From: Heteronotia binoei
Taxonomy: Eukaryota
Reading direction: 5' to 3'
Assembly (NCBI RefSeq): GCF_032191835.1
Contig: NC_083223.1
Coordinates: 252,340,001 to 252,404,000 of the forward strand
DNA: 64,000 nt
Shown here piece by piece: positions 44,336-60,238 of the stretch. Each line of letters starts with the position of its first letter. Position 1 is the first letter of the stretch. Both the position numbers and the translations under genes were made by a program. The notes beneath the pieces were generated by a model that was not told the origin of the DNA, did no database searches, and saw only the letters and a program-made list of their open reading frames with translations.

Positions 44336-47196
44336 TACTGCAGTGCAGACCTACACAGCTACCATCTGAAACAAATTGGAAGGAAGGAATATTCCCTGAG
44401 AGCAGCAATCTACATGTCAAAGATATAATTTCAGAGCTGTAGAAGGGAAGGTCTTGATTTATTTGCCTCTTGGGTTCTCTACAGTGCCTCTCTGAATTCT
44501 GTGGCAAAGAGACAATGCAAAGTCCTTAGAATCAAAGTTGGAAGGGACCCCAGGGTCATCTAGTCCAACCCCCTGCACAATGCAGGAAATTTACAATGGC
44601 TCCCCCTAAATTCACAGGATCTGCATTGCTATCAGATGGCCATCTAGCTTCTGTTTAAAAACCTCCAAGGAAGGAGAGCCCACCACCTTCTGAGGAAGGC
44701 TGTTCCACTGAGGAACCGCTCTGACTGTCAGGAAGTTCTTCCTAATGTTGAACCGGAAACACTTTTGATGTAATTTCAACTCATTGGTTTTGGTCCTACC
44801 TTCTGGGGCTTGCCTTCTCCTTCTGTTCAATATTCCTTCTACTCACTATTTCTTCTCCTTCATTATTTCTAAAATTTGATGGCAACTTTGATGTGGATTG
44901 GAGAAATCTAGACACTTAAAGACTTAACTTTTTACTGAACTGTGAAAGAAGGCTGAACATCTTAACAGTGCCCTCTCGTGGTGATTTTGAGGGCTATGCG
45001 GTGGATGGATCACTATACAGAGCTCTCTTCACAGTCACCAGAGACCCGTCTCTCTTTCTCATGCCAGGCAAGAGAGAGAGCTCCAGTCCTCTGCCCTGCA
45101 TTACAAAGGTTTGGGAGGCCAGCTACACATCAGCTTCTGCACAGGAAGGATGGTGGTCCTCTCCTCTCATCCAGTACCAAAAGCATCCCATGATGGGATG
45201 AAAGCCTTTCAATCCAGCAACAGGATGGCTGAAACAGCACCCTGGATTGTAAGCACGTGCAACAACTTGCTGGAACATAGTCTGCGTACAAAGTAAGTCA
45301 TTAGGAAAGCTGCTCTTTTTTAATGTGACACTGGACATTCACAATGTTTGTTGCTGTGAAAATGCAGCTACCTGTTATGCAAGCAACAGGTTGAAACTCG
45401 TTCAAACCCTAACAGCCCAACAGACAGGAAATATAAAAAGGGCTGTTTTGCATAGCAGTTGCAATTCTAGCCACTCTCAGCACTGAGAGTTCAAACTGGA
45501 ATCCTGCAAGGACTCTGTCTCACCCAAGGACCATCTTCCCTCTCCATGATCTTCAAGGAATCCTGGACCACAACCTCTCTTCTTGTCAGACAAACAAAGT
45601 ATATTTTACATTCTCATCTTTTATTTCCCATTTAGGCAGAACCTGCTCCCACCCCACTATTTTTATATAGGACTAGATTGTGCACTGGCTTCCTCTGGGT
45701 GTATATGATTTTCTGCTAGACCAACTGCTTGGTTTGGATTGACTTTATTCTGTCCCTTTTATTCTAAATAAAATAGTAGTATTTAAATGGTCTTTGCCTC
45801 CTGCCGTTTTTGAGAACACAGTGCCAAGGTTGACCCATGTTACATAGGCTTAAAATCCTCACCCCACAAAAAAACCACAGACTGCTTTAAGTGCACTTAA
45901 GAAAGGAGAAGACTGCAGATTTATACTCTGCCTTCTCTCTGAATCAGAGACTCAGAGTGGCTTACAATCTCCTATATCTTCTCCCCCCACAACAGGCACC
46001 TTGTGAGGTGGGTGGGGCTGAGAGGGCTCTTGCAGCAGCTGCCCTTTCAAGGACAACCTTTGCCAGAGCTATGGCTGACCCAAGGCCATTCCAGCAGCTT
46101 TAAGTGGATGAGGGGAAACAAATCTGATTCTCCCAGATAAGAGTCTGCACACTTAACCACTACACCAAACTGGCATGTACCTGGATACAAGGAGCAGTTT
46201 GTTAAACTGTATATAAAAGGTAACTAGTAAAGAAGAAAAAAATGAAGTATGAAAAATCTGTCAAAATAAAAAAGCAATGTATTTTTTTAAAAGATGCAGA
46301 TAAGAACGTGCATTGTAAGAGAAGCCATGTTGGATCAGGCCAATGGCCTATTCAGTTCAAAACTCTGTGTAACAGTGGCCAGAAATCAGGTGCCATCAGA
46401 AGGTCCACCAGCAAGGCCAGAACTCCAAAAGCCGTCCCACTGTTGCCCTCCAAGCACCAAGAATACAGAGCATCACTGCCCCAGACATAATAGTGTTCCA
46501 TTTATACCTTGTGGCTAATAGCTACTGATGGACCTCTGCTCCATATATTTATCCAGTCCCCTCCTGCAGTTGTCTAAGCTTGTGGCTACTATCACTTCAA
46601 GAGGGGATTGGATAAACAAATGGAGCAGATAGAGTCAAGTGGGTACTCAAGAGTGACTGAGGCAACAGAACAAAGTTTGAGTCCAGTAGACCTTTAAGAC
46701 CAACAAAGATTAATCCTGACACTTCATCGTCCTGTACCAGATGAAGTGTGCTTAGAGAGCACACAAAAGCTTACGTTCTGAATTAAACTAAGTTGGTCTT
46801 AAAGGTGCAACTTGACTATTTTGTTCTGCTTTTTCATATTATAACACAAGGAGTTCTGTTCTGGTGTGCCTGTCCCAGTTAGACACAACAGGCAAGGTTC
46901 TTATTAGTAACAGGAGAAAAATTTATTCAAATAAAAAGAAAAGCCAGCAGAAACGGCACAGCAATTCGCAGACTAAGGAAAAATGCTGCCCTTATATAAT
47001 ACACAACATCTGTCAATCATTTCTGAGCAGCCTCAAGGAACCATATTTCATTTCATTAAATATATAACATTGTTTACCAGTCACTTGAACCACACAGTAG
47101 GAGCAAAAGTATTAGCAAAAGACCAGGTGGTGCTGTTGGCCCAGATGTCATTATAGAGCTACATCTTTGTTCAAGTTATATTAAATGCTGCACACC

Positions 47197-47395
47197 CAGG
47201 GCTTTTTTTGAGCAGGAACGCACAGGAATGCCATTCCGGCTGGCTTGGCATCAGGGGGTGTGGCCTAATATGCAAAGGAGTTTCTGCTGGGCTTATTCTA
47301 CAAAAAAGCCCTATACAAAACAATGGTGATGTCAGGGGGTGTGGCCTAATATGAAAATGAGTTCCTGCTGGGCCTTTTCTACAAAAAAAGCCCTG
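47197..47395. mobile_element. hAT MITE inside the ERV 3' LTR region
   Basis: Exact 8-bp TSD TGCACACC (47189-47196, 47396-47403). Confidence 0.9.
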
Positions 47396-47763
47396 TGCAC
47401 ACCCAACAATCAGTTACACTTAGGAGGTGTACCATGAGAAGAACTGATTATCTACATAGATTATCTTTCCATCCATTATGAAAACCAATTTCTGAAGACT
47501 CATTGGTAGCCCTTATCCAGCCACAGCATGAAAAGGTAATCCCTTGTGCAAGCACCAGTCTGTGGTGACGCCGCATCACGACATTTTCATGACAAACTGA
47601 CATAATGAACACAGATTTCAAAAAATGGCTTTAAACTGCCCTCCCCTTTTATTCCATTGGGGGTTTATAAACAAATAGGGTTTCCTTGGGCACAACAAGA
47701 TGCTGTTAATCTTCTATTTTCTTCTACAACTCCTAACAAATCTCAAGCTTAAATTTCAATTAA

Positions 47764-48062
47764 AAAGGTAAAGTAAAGGCAGTCCCCTGTGAAAGCACCA
47801 GTCATTTCCAACTCTGAGGTGACGTTGCTTTCACAACAATTTCACAGCAGACTTTTTACAGGGTGGTTTGCCATGGCCTTCCCCAGTCATCTACACTTCC
47901 CCCCAGCAAGCTGGGTACTCATTTTATCGACCTCGGAAGGATGGAAGGCTGAGTCAACCTGAGCTGACTACCTGAAACCAGCTTCCGCCGGGATCAAACT
48001 CAGGTTGTGAGCAGAGAGTTCAGACTGCAGTACTGCAGCTTTACCACTCTGCGCCACAGGAC
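47764..48062 (-). mobile_element. Sauria-type SINE inside the ERV 3' region
   Basis: Matches the other copies. Confidence 0.9.
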
Positions 48063-48489
48063 TCATTAAATTTCAATTACTTTATGGCTAAGTGGGCCCC
48101 TCTCAACTATTTCTAATCAAACGTGTGGACACATGATTTTCTACCAAACCCCCTTAGGCTACCCCCTCTCCTATAGGTCAATATCCCATTTAGGGTCTGG
48201 TATTTTCCCCAGCATTGCCACATCATGTAATAAATATATCCTCTGACCATCCCAGTACCAATCTGTGCCAATGGATATGGGTTTATCCTTACATCTTGTT
48301 TCTATTCTTCTGCTTCTCCAACTGAACCCAATAATGTGCACACACAAACTGGTTTTTCCAAGCTTTCCAGAATCCTCACACCCAGCCCCCAAATAATTTA
48401 ATATACTGGTCCCATTTCAGTTGGGCTGGATCCTTCTGAATAGAGAGTGTAAGTCACTGAGGGAATCTGTGCTCCAGGACTTGTCTGCC

Positions 48490-48925
48490 TCAGCCCTGTT
48501 GGCTTGAGATGGATCTTCCACTCAACAGGCTTCTTTGCCCTGATAGGATGAATCCACACAGGCTGACCCTCAACCTTAACTGCACTGTGAGACACTAGCA
48601 AGACCTAGACTAGTCATTTTCACTCTAGCTGGAGAGGTTTCGTGCCTTCACATAAACCCAATCACTGGCTGAAAAGAATGGACTGGAGCATCAAAGTGGT
48701 AAGGGCTGCTGGACAATGGCAAACCTGTGAAGGGAAGACGGACAAAACTGCAAAGCAATCACGTTTCTTTGACACAGCATCTCCAACATTTAAAGTCACC
48801 CTCCCCTTGGGTTTTAATATAGGAAAAGGGGACATCCAAAAGCCGTTTCAAAAGGAGATAACCCTAACTTCCCTTTGGAGCTGTCCAAATTCAAGTTGGT
48901 GCCAAAGTCAAAGTCTGTGGTGAAG
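48490..48925 (-). pseudogene. Retroviral integrase C-terminal remnant
   Basis: With frameshifts: PQTLTLAPT*IWTAPKG/KLGLSPFETAFGCP, DAPVHSFQP/DWVYVK, AVKVEGQPVWIHPIRAK. Confidence 0.85.
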
Positions 48926-48934
48926 TCATGCGTG

Positions 48935-49550
48935 TTTCATTGTGCTTGAAGATTTCTTCTTGGCTGAAATAATAAGGCTCTGTATAACTTGAGAGTAGCA
49001 AAGTCATTCAGAGACTGCCAAAGAGGCGCCATATCAGAGTAGCAGCAGAACTTTGATTCTTCCTGAAAACTCTCTGATGTGGTGTTTCAAAATAAACAAG
49101 GATGAGCCGAGGCTTTGCATTTGGGCAGTCTCTGTGCTGTCTCATTCAAGGTGCAAATTGTATTTTAACAGAATGCTGCCTTTCCAAAATCCCATTTTCT
49201 TTGTTAAAACTCTGTATACAGTATTTTCAAAATTCTCTTCAGGCACATCTAAAAACCTGAGACGTGTTTTGCTTCCTGCATACCCTATTTGTTTAATGTA
49301 GTCATAAATGCCATGAGTTTCTCTTCTTGACTGTACAAACCCTGTTTGCAATTGTTCAATTTCACTCCACACTACTGGAGATTTCATCAATGGATTGTTT
49401 CAAGGCACTGACATGCCGCCTTAGTTCAAAGAGTTCCATTTCAATTTGACTGATTCCCTGAAGTTCCTTAAAGATCATTTCCATAACATCATGGGTTTGG
49501 CTGATACAACCTGCTGAACCTGTTGAACTTCAAAGGTGTTTAACTTCTGA
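48935..49550 (-). pseudogene. LINE-1 ORF1p-like (Transposase_22-type) coiled-coil/RRM/CTD remnant
   Basis: Heptad-like [35 protein letters not shown], then [19 protein letters not shown]...[17 protein letters not shown]; recognised by motif pattern only. Confidence 0.6.
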
Positions 49551-52186
49551 TGGCATACAGTCCGATCTAAAAAACTTGCTCCCAAGGCCCCAAGTTTTAT
49601 TTTTTACATGCTGAGCTTGGATTCTGAAGAGAAACATTCCTGGCTCTTCTTCCATGTCTGTATTTCCACACAGCACCAAGCTTTAAGCTATGCAAAATGT
49701 GTTCACCCTCAGAGCTTTCATCAGAGGGCATGGCTACTCAAGTTATTTCTGCTGCGCCTCACCGGCATTGTGTGCCACATGTATATGCTGCTCTGGCCTT
49801 TGATTTCACTTAAGGATTAGTCCACTTACAATTGCTACCTGATGGTTGAAAGTTGGGGAGAAGGAAGATACTTTCTATTTTGGTACTATTTTCCAATTTA
49901 TATGTAAACATTCCGTAACCTTTTCTCACACTAAATTACTATCAAAGTTTTTGTGTTATCTGACAGCAAATCAGTAGGCTATGGAAATTCGCAAGCTGGG
50001 AAAATGTGATTCATAGGAAGCAATAACATACTGTAAACTGCACTGAAGTTATGTTCTACAGCATCACCTTGATTTACTTCATTCATCTGGTTGACCCATT
50101 CAGTTGGAAGGGAGGTTAACGATAATATTCTCCAAAGATATTCTTTGTTTTCTAGGCACATCGCATTTTGATTAACAACAATAAATACAGACTCACTAAA
50201 AGCCAGAGGAAATGTAGGGCCGGATTATACAGAACTCACACAAGACTCATAGTTCAGGAAAAACATTTCATCTCAAACACAGCATTCCAACAGATCTTTA
50301 CAGAAAGAAAGCTGAATTAAAAACAGTGCTGGAGTTCCATTCAAGAGATCCATGTCAGCAACCTGATAAGCTTGTGCTCCCAATACTTTCGGAGGCAGTT
50401 CTTTAATTGTAATTTCTATCAAGGATAATGACTTTAACACTGACAGCTCATTTGACATGAGTTTTTTTTAAGGCTTGCAACAACACATTAGTACTTCTGA
50501 ACTTTGCTGCTACCTTATTCAATTGCAGCTCCCACAAAACCAACCATTCCTTTCCATATAGCTTTCAGAACAATATCAGAAACATCTTTTCCAACTGCAA
50601 TGAAGCCATCCTGGATTGTATTTATAAATGTATTGGCATGTTTACAAAAGTAAGATGGACTAGTAATCACAGAATACTAAACAGCTTCTAAAGGAAGTAC
50701 AACTTTGTATTCCTTGATAAAACTCAAAATACCGGTTCCCCTGGAACTTCCACTAGTGCAGGTACATAACATCCTACAGGCTTTCAATGTACCATGGCAG
50801 ACCCTTCCACAGTTGCCTGTGGAACAGAAATCAGGATATTTCCTTTTTGGAATCCCTGTTACTTCAAGAATGGTCCTGAATTCAAGCACAGGAGGAGAAG
50901 AGGTGGAATAATTCCTGCCATTAATTTCTTATGAATTGAAATGCTGTTTCCTGGGGCCAGAAGGATATAACTATGGGATTGGATAATTAGTGGCAGCTCC
51001 ACATATTCCATTTACTGAGTCTAAATTATCTACTCCCGTTTTACATGAGCCCTTCCCTTTTTCAGATCCTGAGGGATGCCTGTTATAAACATTTTTCTGA
51101 ACATTTTAACCAGCCTTTACAGATTTAACTCTGTGGACCACAATCATTAAGCATTCCTGAGCCAGTTAAAGCACACTTCCAAAAGCTCACAAAATCATGT
51201 TCCTTATAGTTCTTCTCATGCCACACAAAATTCAACAAATTTCTAACAGTCACAAAGTCATCACAAAATCATAAGTTCCAGCTACTCCAAAGTGCAGCAC
51301 AGCAGCAGTTTTCCCACAGAATATCCTTCAACCATACAATCCGGAGGAGGACAACGGTTTAATCGTTTATTGTGTGCTGCTTTACAGTTAGGAGGATAAT
51401 TATGGCAAACTACACTGCCAAAATTAGGGAAATGCAGCACAGGCTGGAGTGGCAAGACTCCGGAATCCAAAGTCTTGCAGCTTGGATCAATGCTTTGGAA
51501 CAAGCGCTAAACTCCCGTTACCCAGCCTTGTCAGGAAACCTGTGGAACCATGGGGGAGAAGGAAGGCCAGGAGGCCCTTCTTCAAGCCATACTTACCCCC
51601 ACCCTTGGCAGTCAAGGCTGAACACCCCTTACACTACTCAGGGGCCACACAGGGGAGCCATCCCCACATTCCCATCTCTGGCACCATCACATGGTAAGGG
51701 GCCACTCAGGTGTGCGAGGTGCTGCCCTGACTCAAAATTTTCTGACCCCCTCCCCAAAATCCTGAGTCAGGGAAGACACTGTTTTCTGACAGGGAGCCCT
51801 CAGTATCGGCAAAGGCAAGAAAAGTCTGAGGCCACATTTTGGAACAATCATCTACCCCTGCCAATTTGGAACCACTGGTGGCTCACCCAGTTTTACATTT
51901 ATTAAAAGGGAATTTCAATCCCTCTCAAATTATCCCTTAAAGGGCCAATCCCCTGAAAATGGGCCAATCCCTTAAAAAGGGTATCCAAAAATGTTCTCAC
52001 CTATCTTCCATCACCTCAGTGCCTCAAGACATCAACGTGGTTCCCCCCCCCCCCAAAAAAATCTCCTGTTACTAAAACCTCTTCAAGGGACACACAACTT
52101 TTCATGCGGCCTGAGATCAGGAGTGTGGCCTCAAAGGTTCCAGGTGCCATCCAGTCATCCTTAGCTCAGGCCACTGACCAGAAGGT

Positions 52187-52203
52187 GTCCCATCTGGTCG
52201 CCA
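52187..52203 (-). other. Primer-binding site complementary to tRNA-Arg
   Basis: TGGCGACCAGATGGGAC, 4 nt after the LTR end (...TTACA); one base shorter than TGGCGACCCAGATGGGAC, the tRNA-Arg(CCG) complement as recalled. Confidence 0.8.
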
Positions 52204-52490
52204 AAATTGTAATACAAAGGGTTCTGTTCTGGTGTGCCCGTCCCCATTAGACACAACAGGCGACATTGCCCTTATATAACGTTGCATCTGTCAATCATTT
52301 CTGAGCAGCCTCAATACATAGTTTCCTTATGTGGCAAGCATTTGAGCGGGAAACCAGTCACTATGAAAAACATGTAAATGAGAAGCCTTTCCCGCCCAAT
52401 CTTTCAATGTGGAGAAGAGATCGTGTGTGTGTAGTTTCCTCTGAAGCAAAGTCCAGGCACGTTTCAGACCAACCAAAAAAAATTCCAAGG

Positions 52491-52753
52491 TGTAATGTAC
52501 TGAGTGACTAGACGTGTTGAAGGCAACATGCTTTATTAGCGAGTTCATCACAAAGCGAGGCAACGTGGGCCTGGTCGATTATATACATACCCCAACAACC
52601 CTCAGTCTGGCCAGGTCCAATCCTGGCCAGTTAAACTTCCCGCCACAGATCTTGATTGGCGGAGCGTATTTGCCGAGGTACATCCGGGACCAGTGGTGAC
52701 CCCCCTAGCGTCTGCCGTGTTGTACTTTCGGGACTGAAATGCAAGACACAACA
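52491..52753 (-). mobile_element. Gypsy solo LTR related to the LTR at 59966-60238
   Basis: TGTAATGTAC...ACAACA; 5-bp TSD CAAGG; shares tccaatcctggcc and aaacttcccgccacagatcttgattgg with the other LTR. Confidence 0.9.
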
Positions 52754-53049
52754 CAAGGCATTTTATTCAATTTTTTTATTCACGGTGCTTCTAGAGTCTG
52801 GAGACAAATCTAAAGGTTTGTTTCGTGTTTTTGTTTCCCAGCAGCAAGGACAGCGCTCAGCACAGGCGCGCTTGGATTAGAAGGGTCTGCATAGAAAACT
52901 CCGCCGGCTCCCTTCCCGGACCTTTCCTCTTCCATTTCACGTGGGCTGCGATCACACATTCTAAAATAGATAATGCACTTTCAATCCACTTTCTAACTGG
53001 ATTTACTGTGTAAACTGGCAAAATCCAGTTGCAAAGTGCATTATTTAGC

Positions 53050-53800
53050 ATGCGTGATTTATCTCAGCCAAGGTAGGCACTCCAATTCCAACGCGACACC
53101 CGAGGCGCTGCCCCTCCACGCCGAACGGGGCGTCGTCACAAAGAAGCCGAAAGGGCTGCTTCTTTCCGGGCGACCGCGTTTGTTGCCGCCCCTTGCCCTG
53201 CCTTCCGCAGCATGGGCGGCTTCGAGGAGGTCCCCGCGGGCACTTGCCAGGAGATGTGCCCAGCCGGCGAGCTGGTGCGGCGGCGGCGCCAGAAACGGCT
53301 GCACATCTTGGAGCTGGGGCCGCCCGAGCAGGCGGTGAAGGAGTACTCACGGCCTGCCGCCGGCAAGGAGTGCCCGCGGCCAGAAGAGTTGCGTCCGCCG
53401 CCAGTGCTGCTGGCCACGGTGCGGCACCTGCTGGGCGAAGCGGCCCGCCGGCGTCCCGACGTGTCCGCAGCGGAGCAGTGCGCCTTCATCACCGACCGCC
53501 TGCGCGCCGTGCGCCTCGACCTCACGGTGCAGCGTGTGTCCGGCCTGGCCTGCGCTGCAGTCCTCGAGCGCTCCCTCGTCTACCTGCTCCGCGCAGGACA
53601 CCAGCTCTGCGGGGAGCCAGCGGCCCGCTTCGACGCCCACTTGCACCGAGCCCAGGTCCAGGAGTGCTTCGCCGCCCTGCGCCGAGCCTACCGGCACGAG
53701 GAGGACGACCGCGCCGCCGCCCAGCCCCTCTTCCAAGCGCTCTTCTTGCTGTACAACTTGGGTAAGCGGAGGGAGGCTGGGCCGGGTGGGTAGGATGGTG
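53050..53800 (+). promoter_or_regulatory. SAC3D1 CpG island
   Basis: High CpG density covering the promoter and exon 1. Confidence 0.75.
53212..53761 (+). CDS. SAC3D1: SAC3D1 exon 1 (SAC3/GANP domain)
   Basis: GTCQEMCPAGE, AVKEYSRPAAGK, LRPPPVLLATVRHL, FITDRLRAVRLDL; donor G|GTAAGC. Confidence 0.95.
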
Positions 53801-59965: not shown

Positions 59966-60238
59966 TGTAATGTACTCGGAGACAAGATGTGTTGAAGACA
60001 ACATACTTTATTAGCTGGTACATCACAAGATGGGAACGCGGGCCGGGACCCGCTTTATATACACTTTATCCTGGAACAGCCCCTGGACTGCCCAGTCCAA
60101 TCCTGGCCCGTCAAACTTCCCGCCACAGATCTTGATTGGTGGGGACCTTTCGCGCGCTGCGCCCGGTGACCTGGGGATTCCCCTGGTTGCCTCTGATGCA
60201 GGACCGCGTGGTGCTTTCATTCAGCACAAGATGCTACA
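59966..60238 (-). mobile_element. Gypsy 3' LTR
   Basis: TG...CA ends; polypurine tract immediately adjacent (60239-60250, AGGGGGGGGAG on minus); AATAAA and TATA on minus. Confidence 0.9.

Follow-up and report, generated by a model that had tools for sequence, protein, structure and literature searches.

A decayed ERV1-type element in a gecko genome carries fragments of host RIF1 mRNA and UNC13C RNA

In defective transducing retroviruses, the class known for oncogene capture, host exons replace viral coding sequence and the virus depends on a helper. A second described system is the LTR-mediated retrocopy, which the available part of Tan et al. (2016; PMC5131818) portrays as a partial gene copy flanked by LTR sequence and marked by microsimilarity; such copies can combine two to four genes, and some have been retroposed again. 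Among reptiles, crocodilian ERVs have captured the mRNAs of KIT-ligand (CrocERV29) and nectin3 (CrocERV31), according to the accessible portion of PMC4299795.

We analyzed a 64,000-nucleotide stretch of DNA (C1:252340001-252404000 of a 2.6-Gb genome; hereafter “the window”) whose genes have their closest named homologues in geckos, as judged by protein searches. It holds an old, dead, non-coding and non-autonomous ERV1-type LTR element that carries pieces of two host genes. In the features given in the available part of Tan et al. (2016; PMC5131818), the element resembles an LTR-mediated retrocopy: it bears intron-free, 3'-truncated partial mRNA with discontinuous LTR-element flanks and no poly(A) tail or target-site duplication (TSD) of the cargo's own, it draws on two or more parental genes, and it was retroposed again non-autonomously. 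It shares with CrocERV29 and CrocERV31 a reptilian ERV as carrier, an mRNA cargo and several copies; the crocodilian elements, however, are described in that portion of PMC4299795 as belonging to non-ERV1 lineages and each holding one gene whose intact ORF is under purifying selection, whereas the window element carries two genes, fragmentary and neutrally decayed. As in defective transducing retroviruses, host exons stand in place of viral coding sequence, but the window element has no open fusion frame, and no provirus remnant was found upstream of the UNC13C exon. Our literature search returned no description of host mRNA in a gecko ERV and none of an ERV-borne RIF1 retrocopy. The element is thus a new case of known LTR-mediated multi-gene capture, not a new kind of element. 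Its importance is modest: it extends such capture to a lizard ERV, with one chimera inserted at least twice.

Architecture of the element and its relatives

The element occupies positions 52406-46840 of the window on the minus strand. The original prediction had set its start too far inside and had left out a truncated 3' LTR at 47036-46840 that belongs to it. A repeat comparison within the window pairs 52206-52314 with 46838-47036, and we set the LTR bounds by alignment to the LTRs of a related provirus on C10 and to five other genomic LTRs. The 5' LTR (52208-52406, minus strand) runs from TG at 52406 to CA at 52208, lacks ~95 internal bp, and is preceded by ACAT, a candidate 4-bp TSD. The 3' LTR (46840-47036, minus strand) is missing its first ~100 bp together with the PPT and the env TM region, and is followed by ATAT, which leaves one mismatch in the TSD when the flanks are compared. 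We infer that the 3' LTR start, PPT and env TM region were deleted after insertion. A provirus copies both of its U3s from one template, so the LTR deletions postdate insertion, and large later deletions are therefore ordinary at this locus.

Inward of the 5' LTR, a primer-binding site (PBS; 52187-52203, minus strand) matches the 3' end of genomic tRNA-Arg(CCG) at 17 of 18 nt, one base being absent. The leader that follows (51848-52186, minus strand) is common to the C10 copy and to another copy at C1:174.7 Mb, and contains a splice-donor-like GATAG/GTGAGA at 52001/52000, with a similar site in the C1:174.7 Mb copy. The predicted 5' LTR, Arg PBS and donor are therefore all in place, and paired TG...CA LTRs, a tRNA PBS and a 4-bp TSD mark the element as an ERV1-type provirus. 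Mismatches within the LTR pairs amount to 14 of 104 columns (13%) in the window and 18 of 113 (16%) in the C10 provirus, which presumably corresponds to tens of millions of years whichever of the usual reptile rates is applied.

Beyond the leader lies a ~490-bp insertion (51351-51847, minus strand) that has TTGT at both borders, matches four dispersed loci, and is missing from both the C10 and the C1:174.7 Mb copies. A peptide within it (WPQ...EGS) had been read as MA-like, but it matches neither Pfam nor any of three intact gag frames, and that reading is abandoned. Next comes a “body” segment (50951-51350, minus strand), common to the C10 and C1:174.7 Mb copies and to a relative on C8 (68% identity), with no gag or pol match. 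The host cargo follows, and then the C-terminal ~140 codons of an ERV1-type pol (48488-48965, minus strand; tblastn), comprising the end of the integrase core and the C-terminal domain in frameshifted form. The integrase predicted to follow the ORF1p module is hence partly borne out: the sequence is integrase-like, but ERV frames from 30 and then five genomic loci match the window only at 48876-48488, equivalent to pol aa ~1052-1186 of ~1200, and the catalytic triad is absent. In tblastn with the genome's MLVIN_C-bearing pols, this tail gives three colinear blocks (E 2e-4 to 7e-3). MLVIN_C matches the C8 relative at E 5e-5, under the cut-off, while Pfam is silent for the window pieces, and a protein search of the same genome with the integrase-tail frame returns only itself.

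Neither Pfam nor genomic ERV frames detect protease, RT, RNase H or catalytic integrase within the element, in agreement with the prediction for the first three. ERV frames of the 30 plus five loci likewise give no gag match in the window, and env-side matches that are marginal at best. Across the six X-read frames of 47100-52202, Pfam reports a single weak match, to ORF29 (E 0.35), and none to Transposase_22, rve or MLVIN_C; on smaller window pieces it reports weak coiled-coil matches or ORF29 alone. The 3' interior (47037-48487, minus strand), common to the C10 copy, is likely a decayed env surface region, to judge from sequence, because it continues into the TM-like frame of a fragment at C20:28.386 Mb. 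Flank comparison identifies two later insertions within it: a SINE-like repeat (47762-48065, minus strand; 13-bp TSD AATTGAAATTTAA), possibly a Sauria SINE, and a MITE-like repeat (47197-47395, no strand assigned) with terminal inverted repeats and an 8-bp TSD, GGTGTGCA.

A genome search with window positions 48100-52203 yielded 29 matches from 14 scored candidates; such searches score only the best candidates, so all copy counts are lower bounds. The provirus at C10:42.6875-42.6903 Mb has its own LTR pair, a perfect ATAT/ATAT TSD, and flanks unrelated to those of the window. It shows the same body-RIF1 join as the window, and a deletion at a GAAG homology has removed everything from RIF1 aa ~676 to the end of the integrase, including the whole UNC13C slot, so this copy cannot order the two captures. 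The copy at C1:174.696 Mb consists of LTR, leader and body, followed by unrelated DNA. In the C8 relative (68-73% identity), the body is joined directly to the integrase tail without cargo, which suggests an empty backbone, although this relative could itself be a deletion product. Around each of eight further LTR loci, a stretch of 17-18 kb contains nothing that matches leader, body, cargo or integrase, and these loci look like solo LTRs; two of them have a 29-60 nt match to the 3' end. The PBS-plus-leader pattern matches four places, three of which are real copies and one, on C13, has no surrounding element. A parent autonomous virus was not found, as the long frames of five ERV loci match the pol tail alone and none has the window's PBS; the two element/cargo joins consequently carry no homology score.

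Host cargo from RIF1 and UNC13C

The first part of the cargo had been described as a long unknown frame. It is spliced RIF1 mRNA, free of introns, whose exons lie on C16. The fragment at 49979-50735 (minus strand) covers aa ~452-710 with stops and indels and corresponds to one exon's tail plus seven further exons at C16:16.529-16.538 Mb. Seven abutting blocks (50690-49979) match C16 stretches that lie 0.1-3.3 kb apart, with AG/GT at or a few bases from the ends of six of the seven, and of the seventh too after extension. The X-read frame matches 781 proteins at E<=1e-20, with RIF1 best at 81%, and the Rif1_N domain (PF12231) is present in all of the best 120 of these 781. Divergence from the host exons, ~15% overall, is 15.2% over 772 nt. 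The 5' part of the RIF1 piece (50736-50950, plus strand; about aa 400-450) is inverted in the window, and the C10 copy lacks this inversion. Positions 50736-50800 match the preceding RIF1 exon weakly except over the final 12 nt, with 5 of 500 shuffles reaching the score. That the inverted segment is a RIF1 intron was ruled out; the mapping places it in an exon. A PDB search with the RIF1 piece gave no match.

The second part (48968-49980, minus strand) derives from the first coding exon of UNC13C at C19:45.7156-45.7183 Mb. It comprises seven pieces, namely two of 5' UTR and aa ~19-34, ~85-102, 128-384, 509-539 and 840-847, separated by six internal deletions of 72-902 nt (in order 81, 72, 153, 77, 376 and 902 nt). 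The main block is 84% identical over 783 nt to its C19 source, which is one long open frame with 97% identity to gecko UNC13C over aa 200-430 and 84-93% identity to the other 119 homologues listed. In the element, the start codon is deleted, and the main block (aa 128-384) carries 12 indels and differences spread 21/25/39 over the three codon positions. A genome search with the exon matches the gene and the window alone (two candidates scored), and no second element bearing UNC13C was found in our genome searches. The microhomologies at the deletions are, in order, 0, 2, 3, 1, 9 and 0 nt; one of the six is thus long, and because the other five have no telling homology, the deletions are no proof of RT jumps.

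Both cargoes are in sense orientation to the element, apart from the later RIF1 inversion, and both are cut at either end. RIF1 stops at aa 710 of ~2390 and UNC13C at aa 847 of ~2200, each far short of its mRNA 3' end, and neither a poly(A) tail nor a TSD of the cargo's own is seen at the joins. Together they are flanked, in the same orientation, by one LTR family, with 5' LTR, PBS, leader and body on one side and integrase tail, env-like region and LTR on the other. The join between them coincides with the end of a RIF1 exon and follows TTTTCAG of UNC13C, a splice-like position. A re-created donor at this site was considered and ruled out; the next RIF1 exon starts CC.

The RIF1 pieces of the window and C10 copies decayed neutrally. 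Element-only substitutions are spread over the codon positions as 16/11/17 in the window and 13/17/18 in C10. Of 13 residues at which both copies differ from the host, 12 match other lizards, none is element-specific when set against host and outgroups together, and one is unclear, so almost no change is common to the element branch. The even spread and the lack of element-specific residues together indicate that both copies arrived at their loci shortly after capture and decayed thereafter.

The ORF1p-like domain of host UNC13C

An L1 ORF1p-like coil, RRM and CTD had been predicted within the element. The coil and RRM likeness holds, at ~49530-49079, but its source is the host UNC13C exon, the RRM is truncated and there is no CTD. 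Pfam finds no Transposase_22 match in the window's own frames, and it scores the domain in host UNC13C at 22.6 bits against a cut-off of 22.4 for a 200-aa piece (19.5 bits for the 887-aa frame). A six-row profile of the host region matches the human ORF1p chains 2ykp/2yko in the PDB at E 1e-6. For a predicted model of this region (mean pLDDT 72, six-row alignment), the top Foldseek hits listed are all ORF1p, with a best E of 3.6e-5 and a TM-score to the RRM chain of about 0.6. By these Pfam, PDB, model and Foldseek results, host UNC13C holds a coiled coil followed by an ORF1p-type RRM. A cluster-representative search gave 792 hits at E<=0.001; among ten that we looked up, two were named UNC13B (anole and horse), while the other eight had no name or were listed as uncharacterised. 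The element's copy breaks off at aa 384 of UNC13C, short of the final helix and strand of the RRM in the model, and continues with UNC13C aa 509-539 and 840-847 rather than a CTD. By Pfam and cargo mapping, the element contains no CTD, L1 ORF2 or poly(A) tail.

The ORF1p-like domain of UNC13C is already known in print. The methods of PMC12129022 (presumably Kitao et al. 2025) and of its preprint call the canonical UNC13C exon probably homologous to L1 ORF1, and its authors left this unanalysed. The exon is the one captured here, and our Pfam, PDB and Foldseek results agree with that remark; the available text of PMC12129022 concerns the host gene and makes no mention of capture of the exon by an LTR element. 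The ORF1p resemblance in the element thus comes from an old L1-ORF1p-like domain of UNC13C, which likely had no role in the element. Outside the element, this domain of Munc13-3 is conserved at 84-97% across the tetrapods listed and occurs also in UNC13B isoforms. For annotation, the case is a warning that an ORF1p profile hit within an ERV can stem from a host gene.

Origin of the chimera

We regard it as probable that this dead ERV1-type element gained its RIF1 mRNA and UNC13C exon pieces through capture, likely by RT template switching between co-packaged RNAs at short homologies. At the RIF1/UNC13C join, RIF1 reads ...CCACAG/CCCAC and UNC13C ...TTTCAG/CCAAC, giving a CAGCC microhomology. 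The next RIF1 exon begins CCCAC, so in the spliced RIF1 mRNA the homology extends across the join. Its length is 5 nt exact, or 7 of 8 nt, with chances of 0.006 and 0.003 for a random pair, and at this one join it parallels the microsimilarity described in the available part of Tan et al. (2016; PMC5131818). A helper ERV active in the germ line would have copied a backbone that already lacked gag-pro-RT. RT would have switched among the element RNA, UNC13C RNA and RIF1 mRNA before returning to the element, within a single round or over two. At least two insertions of the RIF1-bearing form would have taken place close together in time, and the RIF1 inversion, the LTR and env deletions, three repeat insertions and probably several of the UNC13C deletions would have followed.

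The main rival to template switching is splicing, in which RIF1 and UNC13C were joined by trans-splicing, or by read-through splicing that began in a provirus lying upstream of the exon of UNC13C, before the chimeric RNA was captured. The break lies exactly at a RIF1 donor (CAG/gtaag) and right after UNC13C gattttcAG, as splicing would have it. Yet the homology runs past the exon end into the CCCAC of the next RIF1 exon, that exon offers no GT for a re-created donor, and RIF1 and UNC13C lie on different contigs. Moreover, in the ~210 kb covered upstream of the UNC13C exon, which reach to within ~35 kb of the contig's end, no trace of LTR, leader, body, RIF1 or integrase was found, and the sole match there is to the 3' interior (69 nt, 71%). 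We therefore favour template switching and judge splicing unlikely. Quite improbable is a sequence of events in which LINE-made processed pseudogenes of RIF1 and UNC13C landed in a provirus already in place and later lost parts through deletion. Later insertions and deletions are clear at the window locus, and the RIF1 5' inversion resembles twin priming, but both pieces end far from the mRNA 3' ends with no poly(A) or TSD seen, and the same RIF1 join occurs in two independently inserted proviruses, one of which (C10) lacks the inversion. For RIF1, the C10 copy largely refutes this explanation.

The original prediction was right that a non-autonomous LTR element had its gag-pol replaced by captured cargo and that this is not an L1 insertion. 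It had the cargo wrong, which is host RIF1 and UNC13C RNA, with nothing LINE-derived and no RNA-chaperone gene. In the proposed genome-wide comparison, the C10 provirus shares the LTR family and the RIF1 cargo, and the ORF1p module was found in no second element. The reading in which gag gave way to a captured, functional RNA-chaperone gene of the L1 ORF1p type draws on the match of the module's host source to L1 ORF1p in Transposase_22, PDB and Foldseek comparisons. This reading is refuted as to origin, and we give it almost no credence: the DNA is 84% identical to UNC13C, including UTR and parts outside the ORF1p likeness, the start codon is deleted, the RRM is cut, the main block has 12 indels, and the UNC13C exon search finds the gene and the window alone.

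As a fossil, the element points to the likely presence of RIF1 and UNC13C RNAs in germ-line cells that harboured active ERV particles. RIF1 is reported, in the available part of PMC10366267, to silence ERVs in mouse stem cells. It is conceivable, though very improbable, that the RIF1 HEAT-region cargo, acting as a decoy peptide or giving rise to small RNAs, weakened the silencing of the element and so aided its spread, with the UNC13C piece as a second, possibly trans-spliced, passenger. If so, the RIF1 capture would represent ERV counter-defence by theft of a host gene.

The ORF1p-like domain and the host UNC13C gene

The coil and RRM domain encoded by host UNC13C (G000:C19:45716880-45717420, on contig C19; residues ~234-413) matches L1 ORF1p by both profile and fold, a likeness already in print for UNC13C (PMC12129022). 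UNC13B isoforms from anole and horse contain a region related to this domain, with 33-34% identity.

Copies and relatives elsewhere in the genome

Within the RIF1 cargo of the second RIF1-bearing provirus, on contig C10, lies an A/T-rich insertion of ~300 bp (L032:6297-6590), bounded on both sides by an 11-bp duplication, TCAATGTACCA. Immediately upstream of this provirus' 5' LTR, 36 bp (L032:7414-7449) match the 3' interior of the element (window 48143-48178) at 92%, possibly as the remnant of an adjacent copy. Two relatives of the element's interior, each without LTRs, are found on C8 (L037:3000-5950) and C20 (L135:7900-9430), and both keep env TM-like remnants, whereas the window copy has lost them. 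MLV-type integrase ends number at least 150 in this genome. Many of them sit inside open pol frames of ~1200 residues, and these represent young ERV1 families, separate from the element.

Neighboring features in the window

A GC-rich, plus-strand exon with a SAC3/GANP domain (window 53188-53790; domain E 1e-45), which is probably part of SAC3D1, lies back to back with the element, the exon's start being ~800 bp away from the 5' LTR. The window also holds two copies, ~79% alike, of an LTR-like repeat (52490-52760 and 59966-60200) whose minus-strand end reads ...TACA; this repeat belongs to a family other than the element's.
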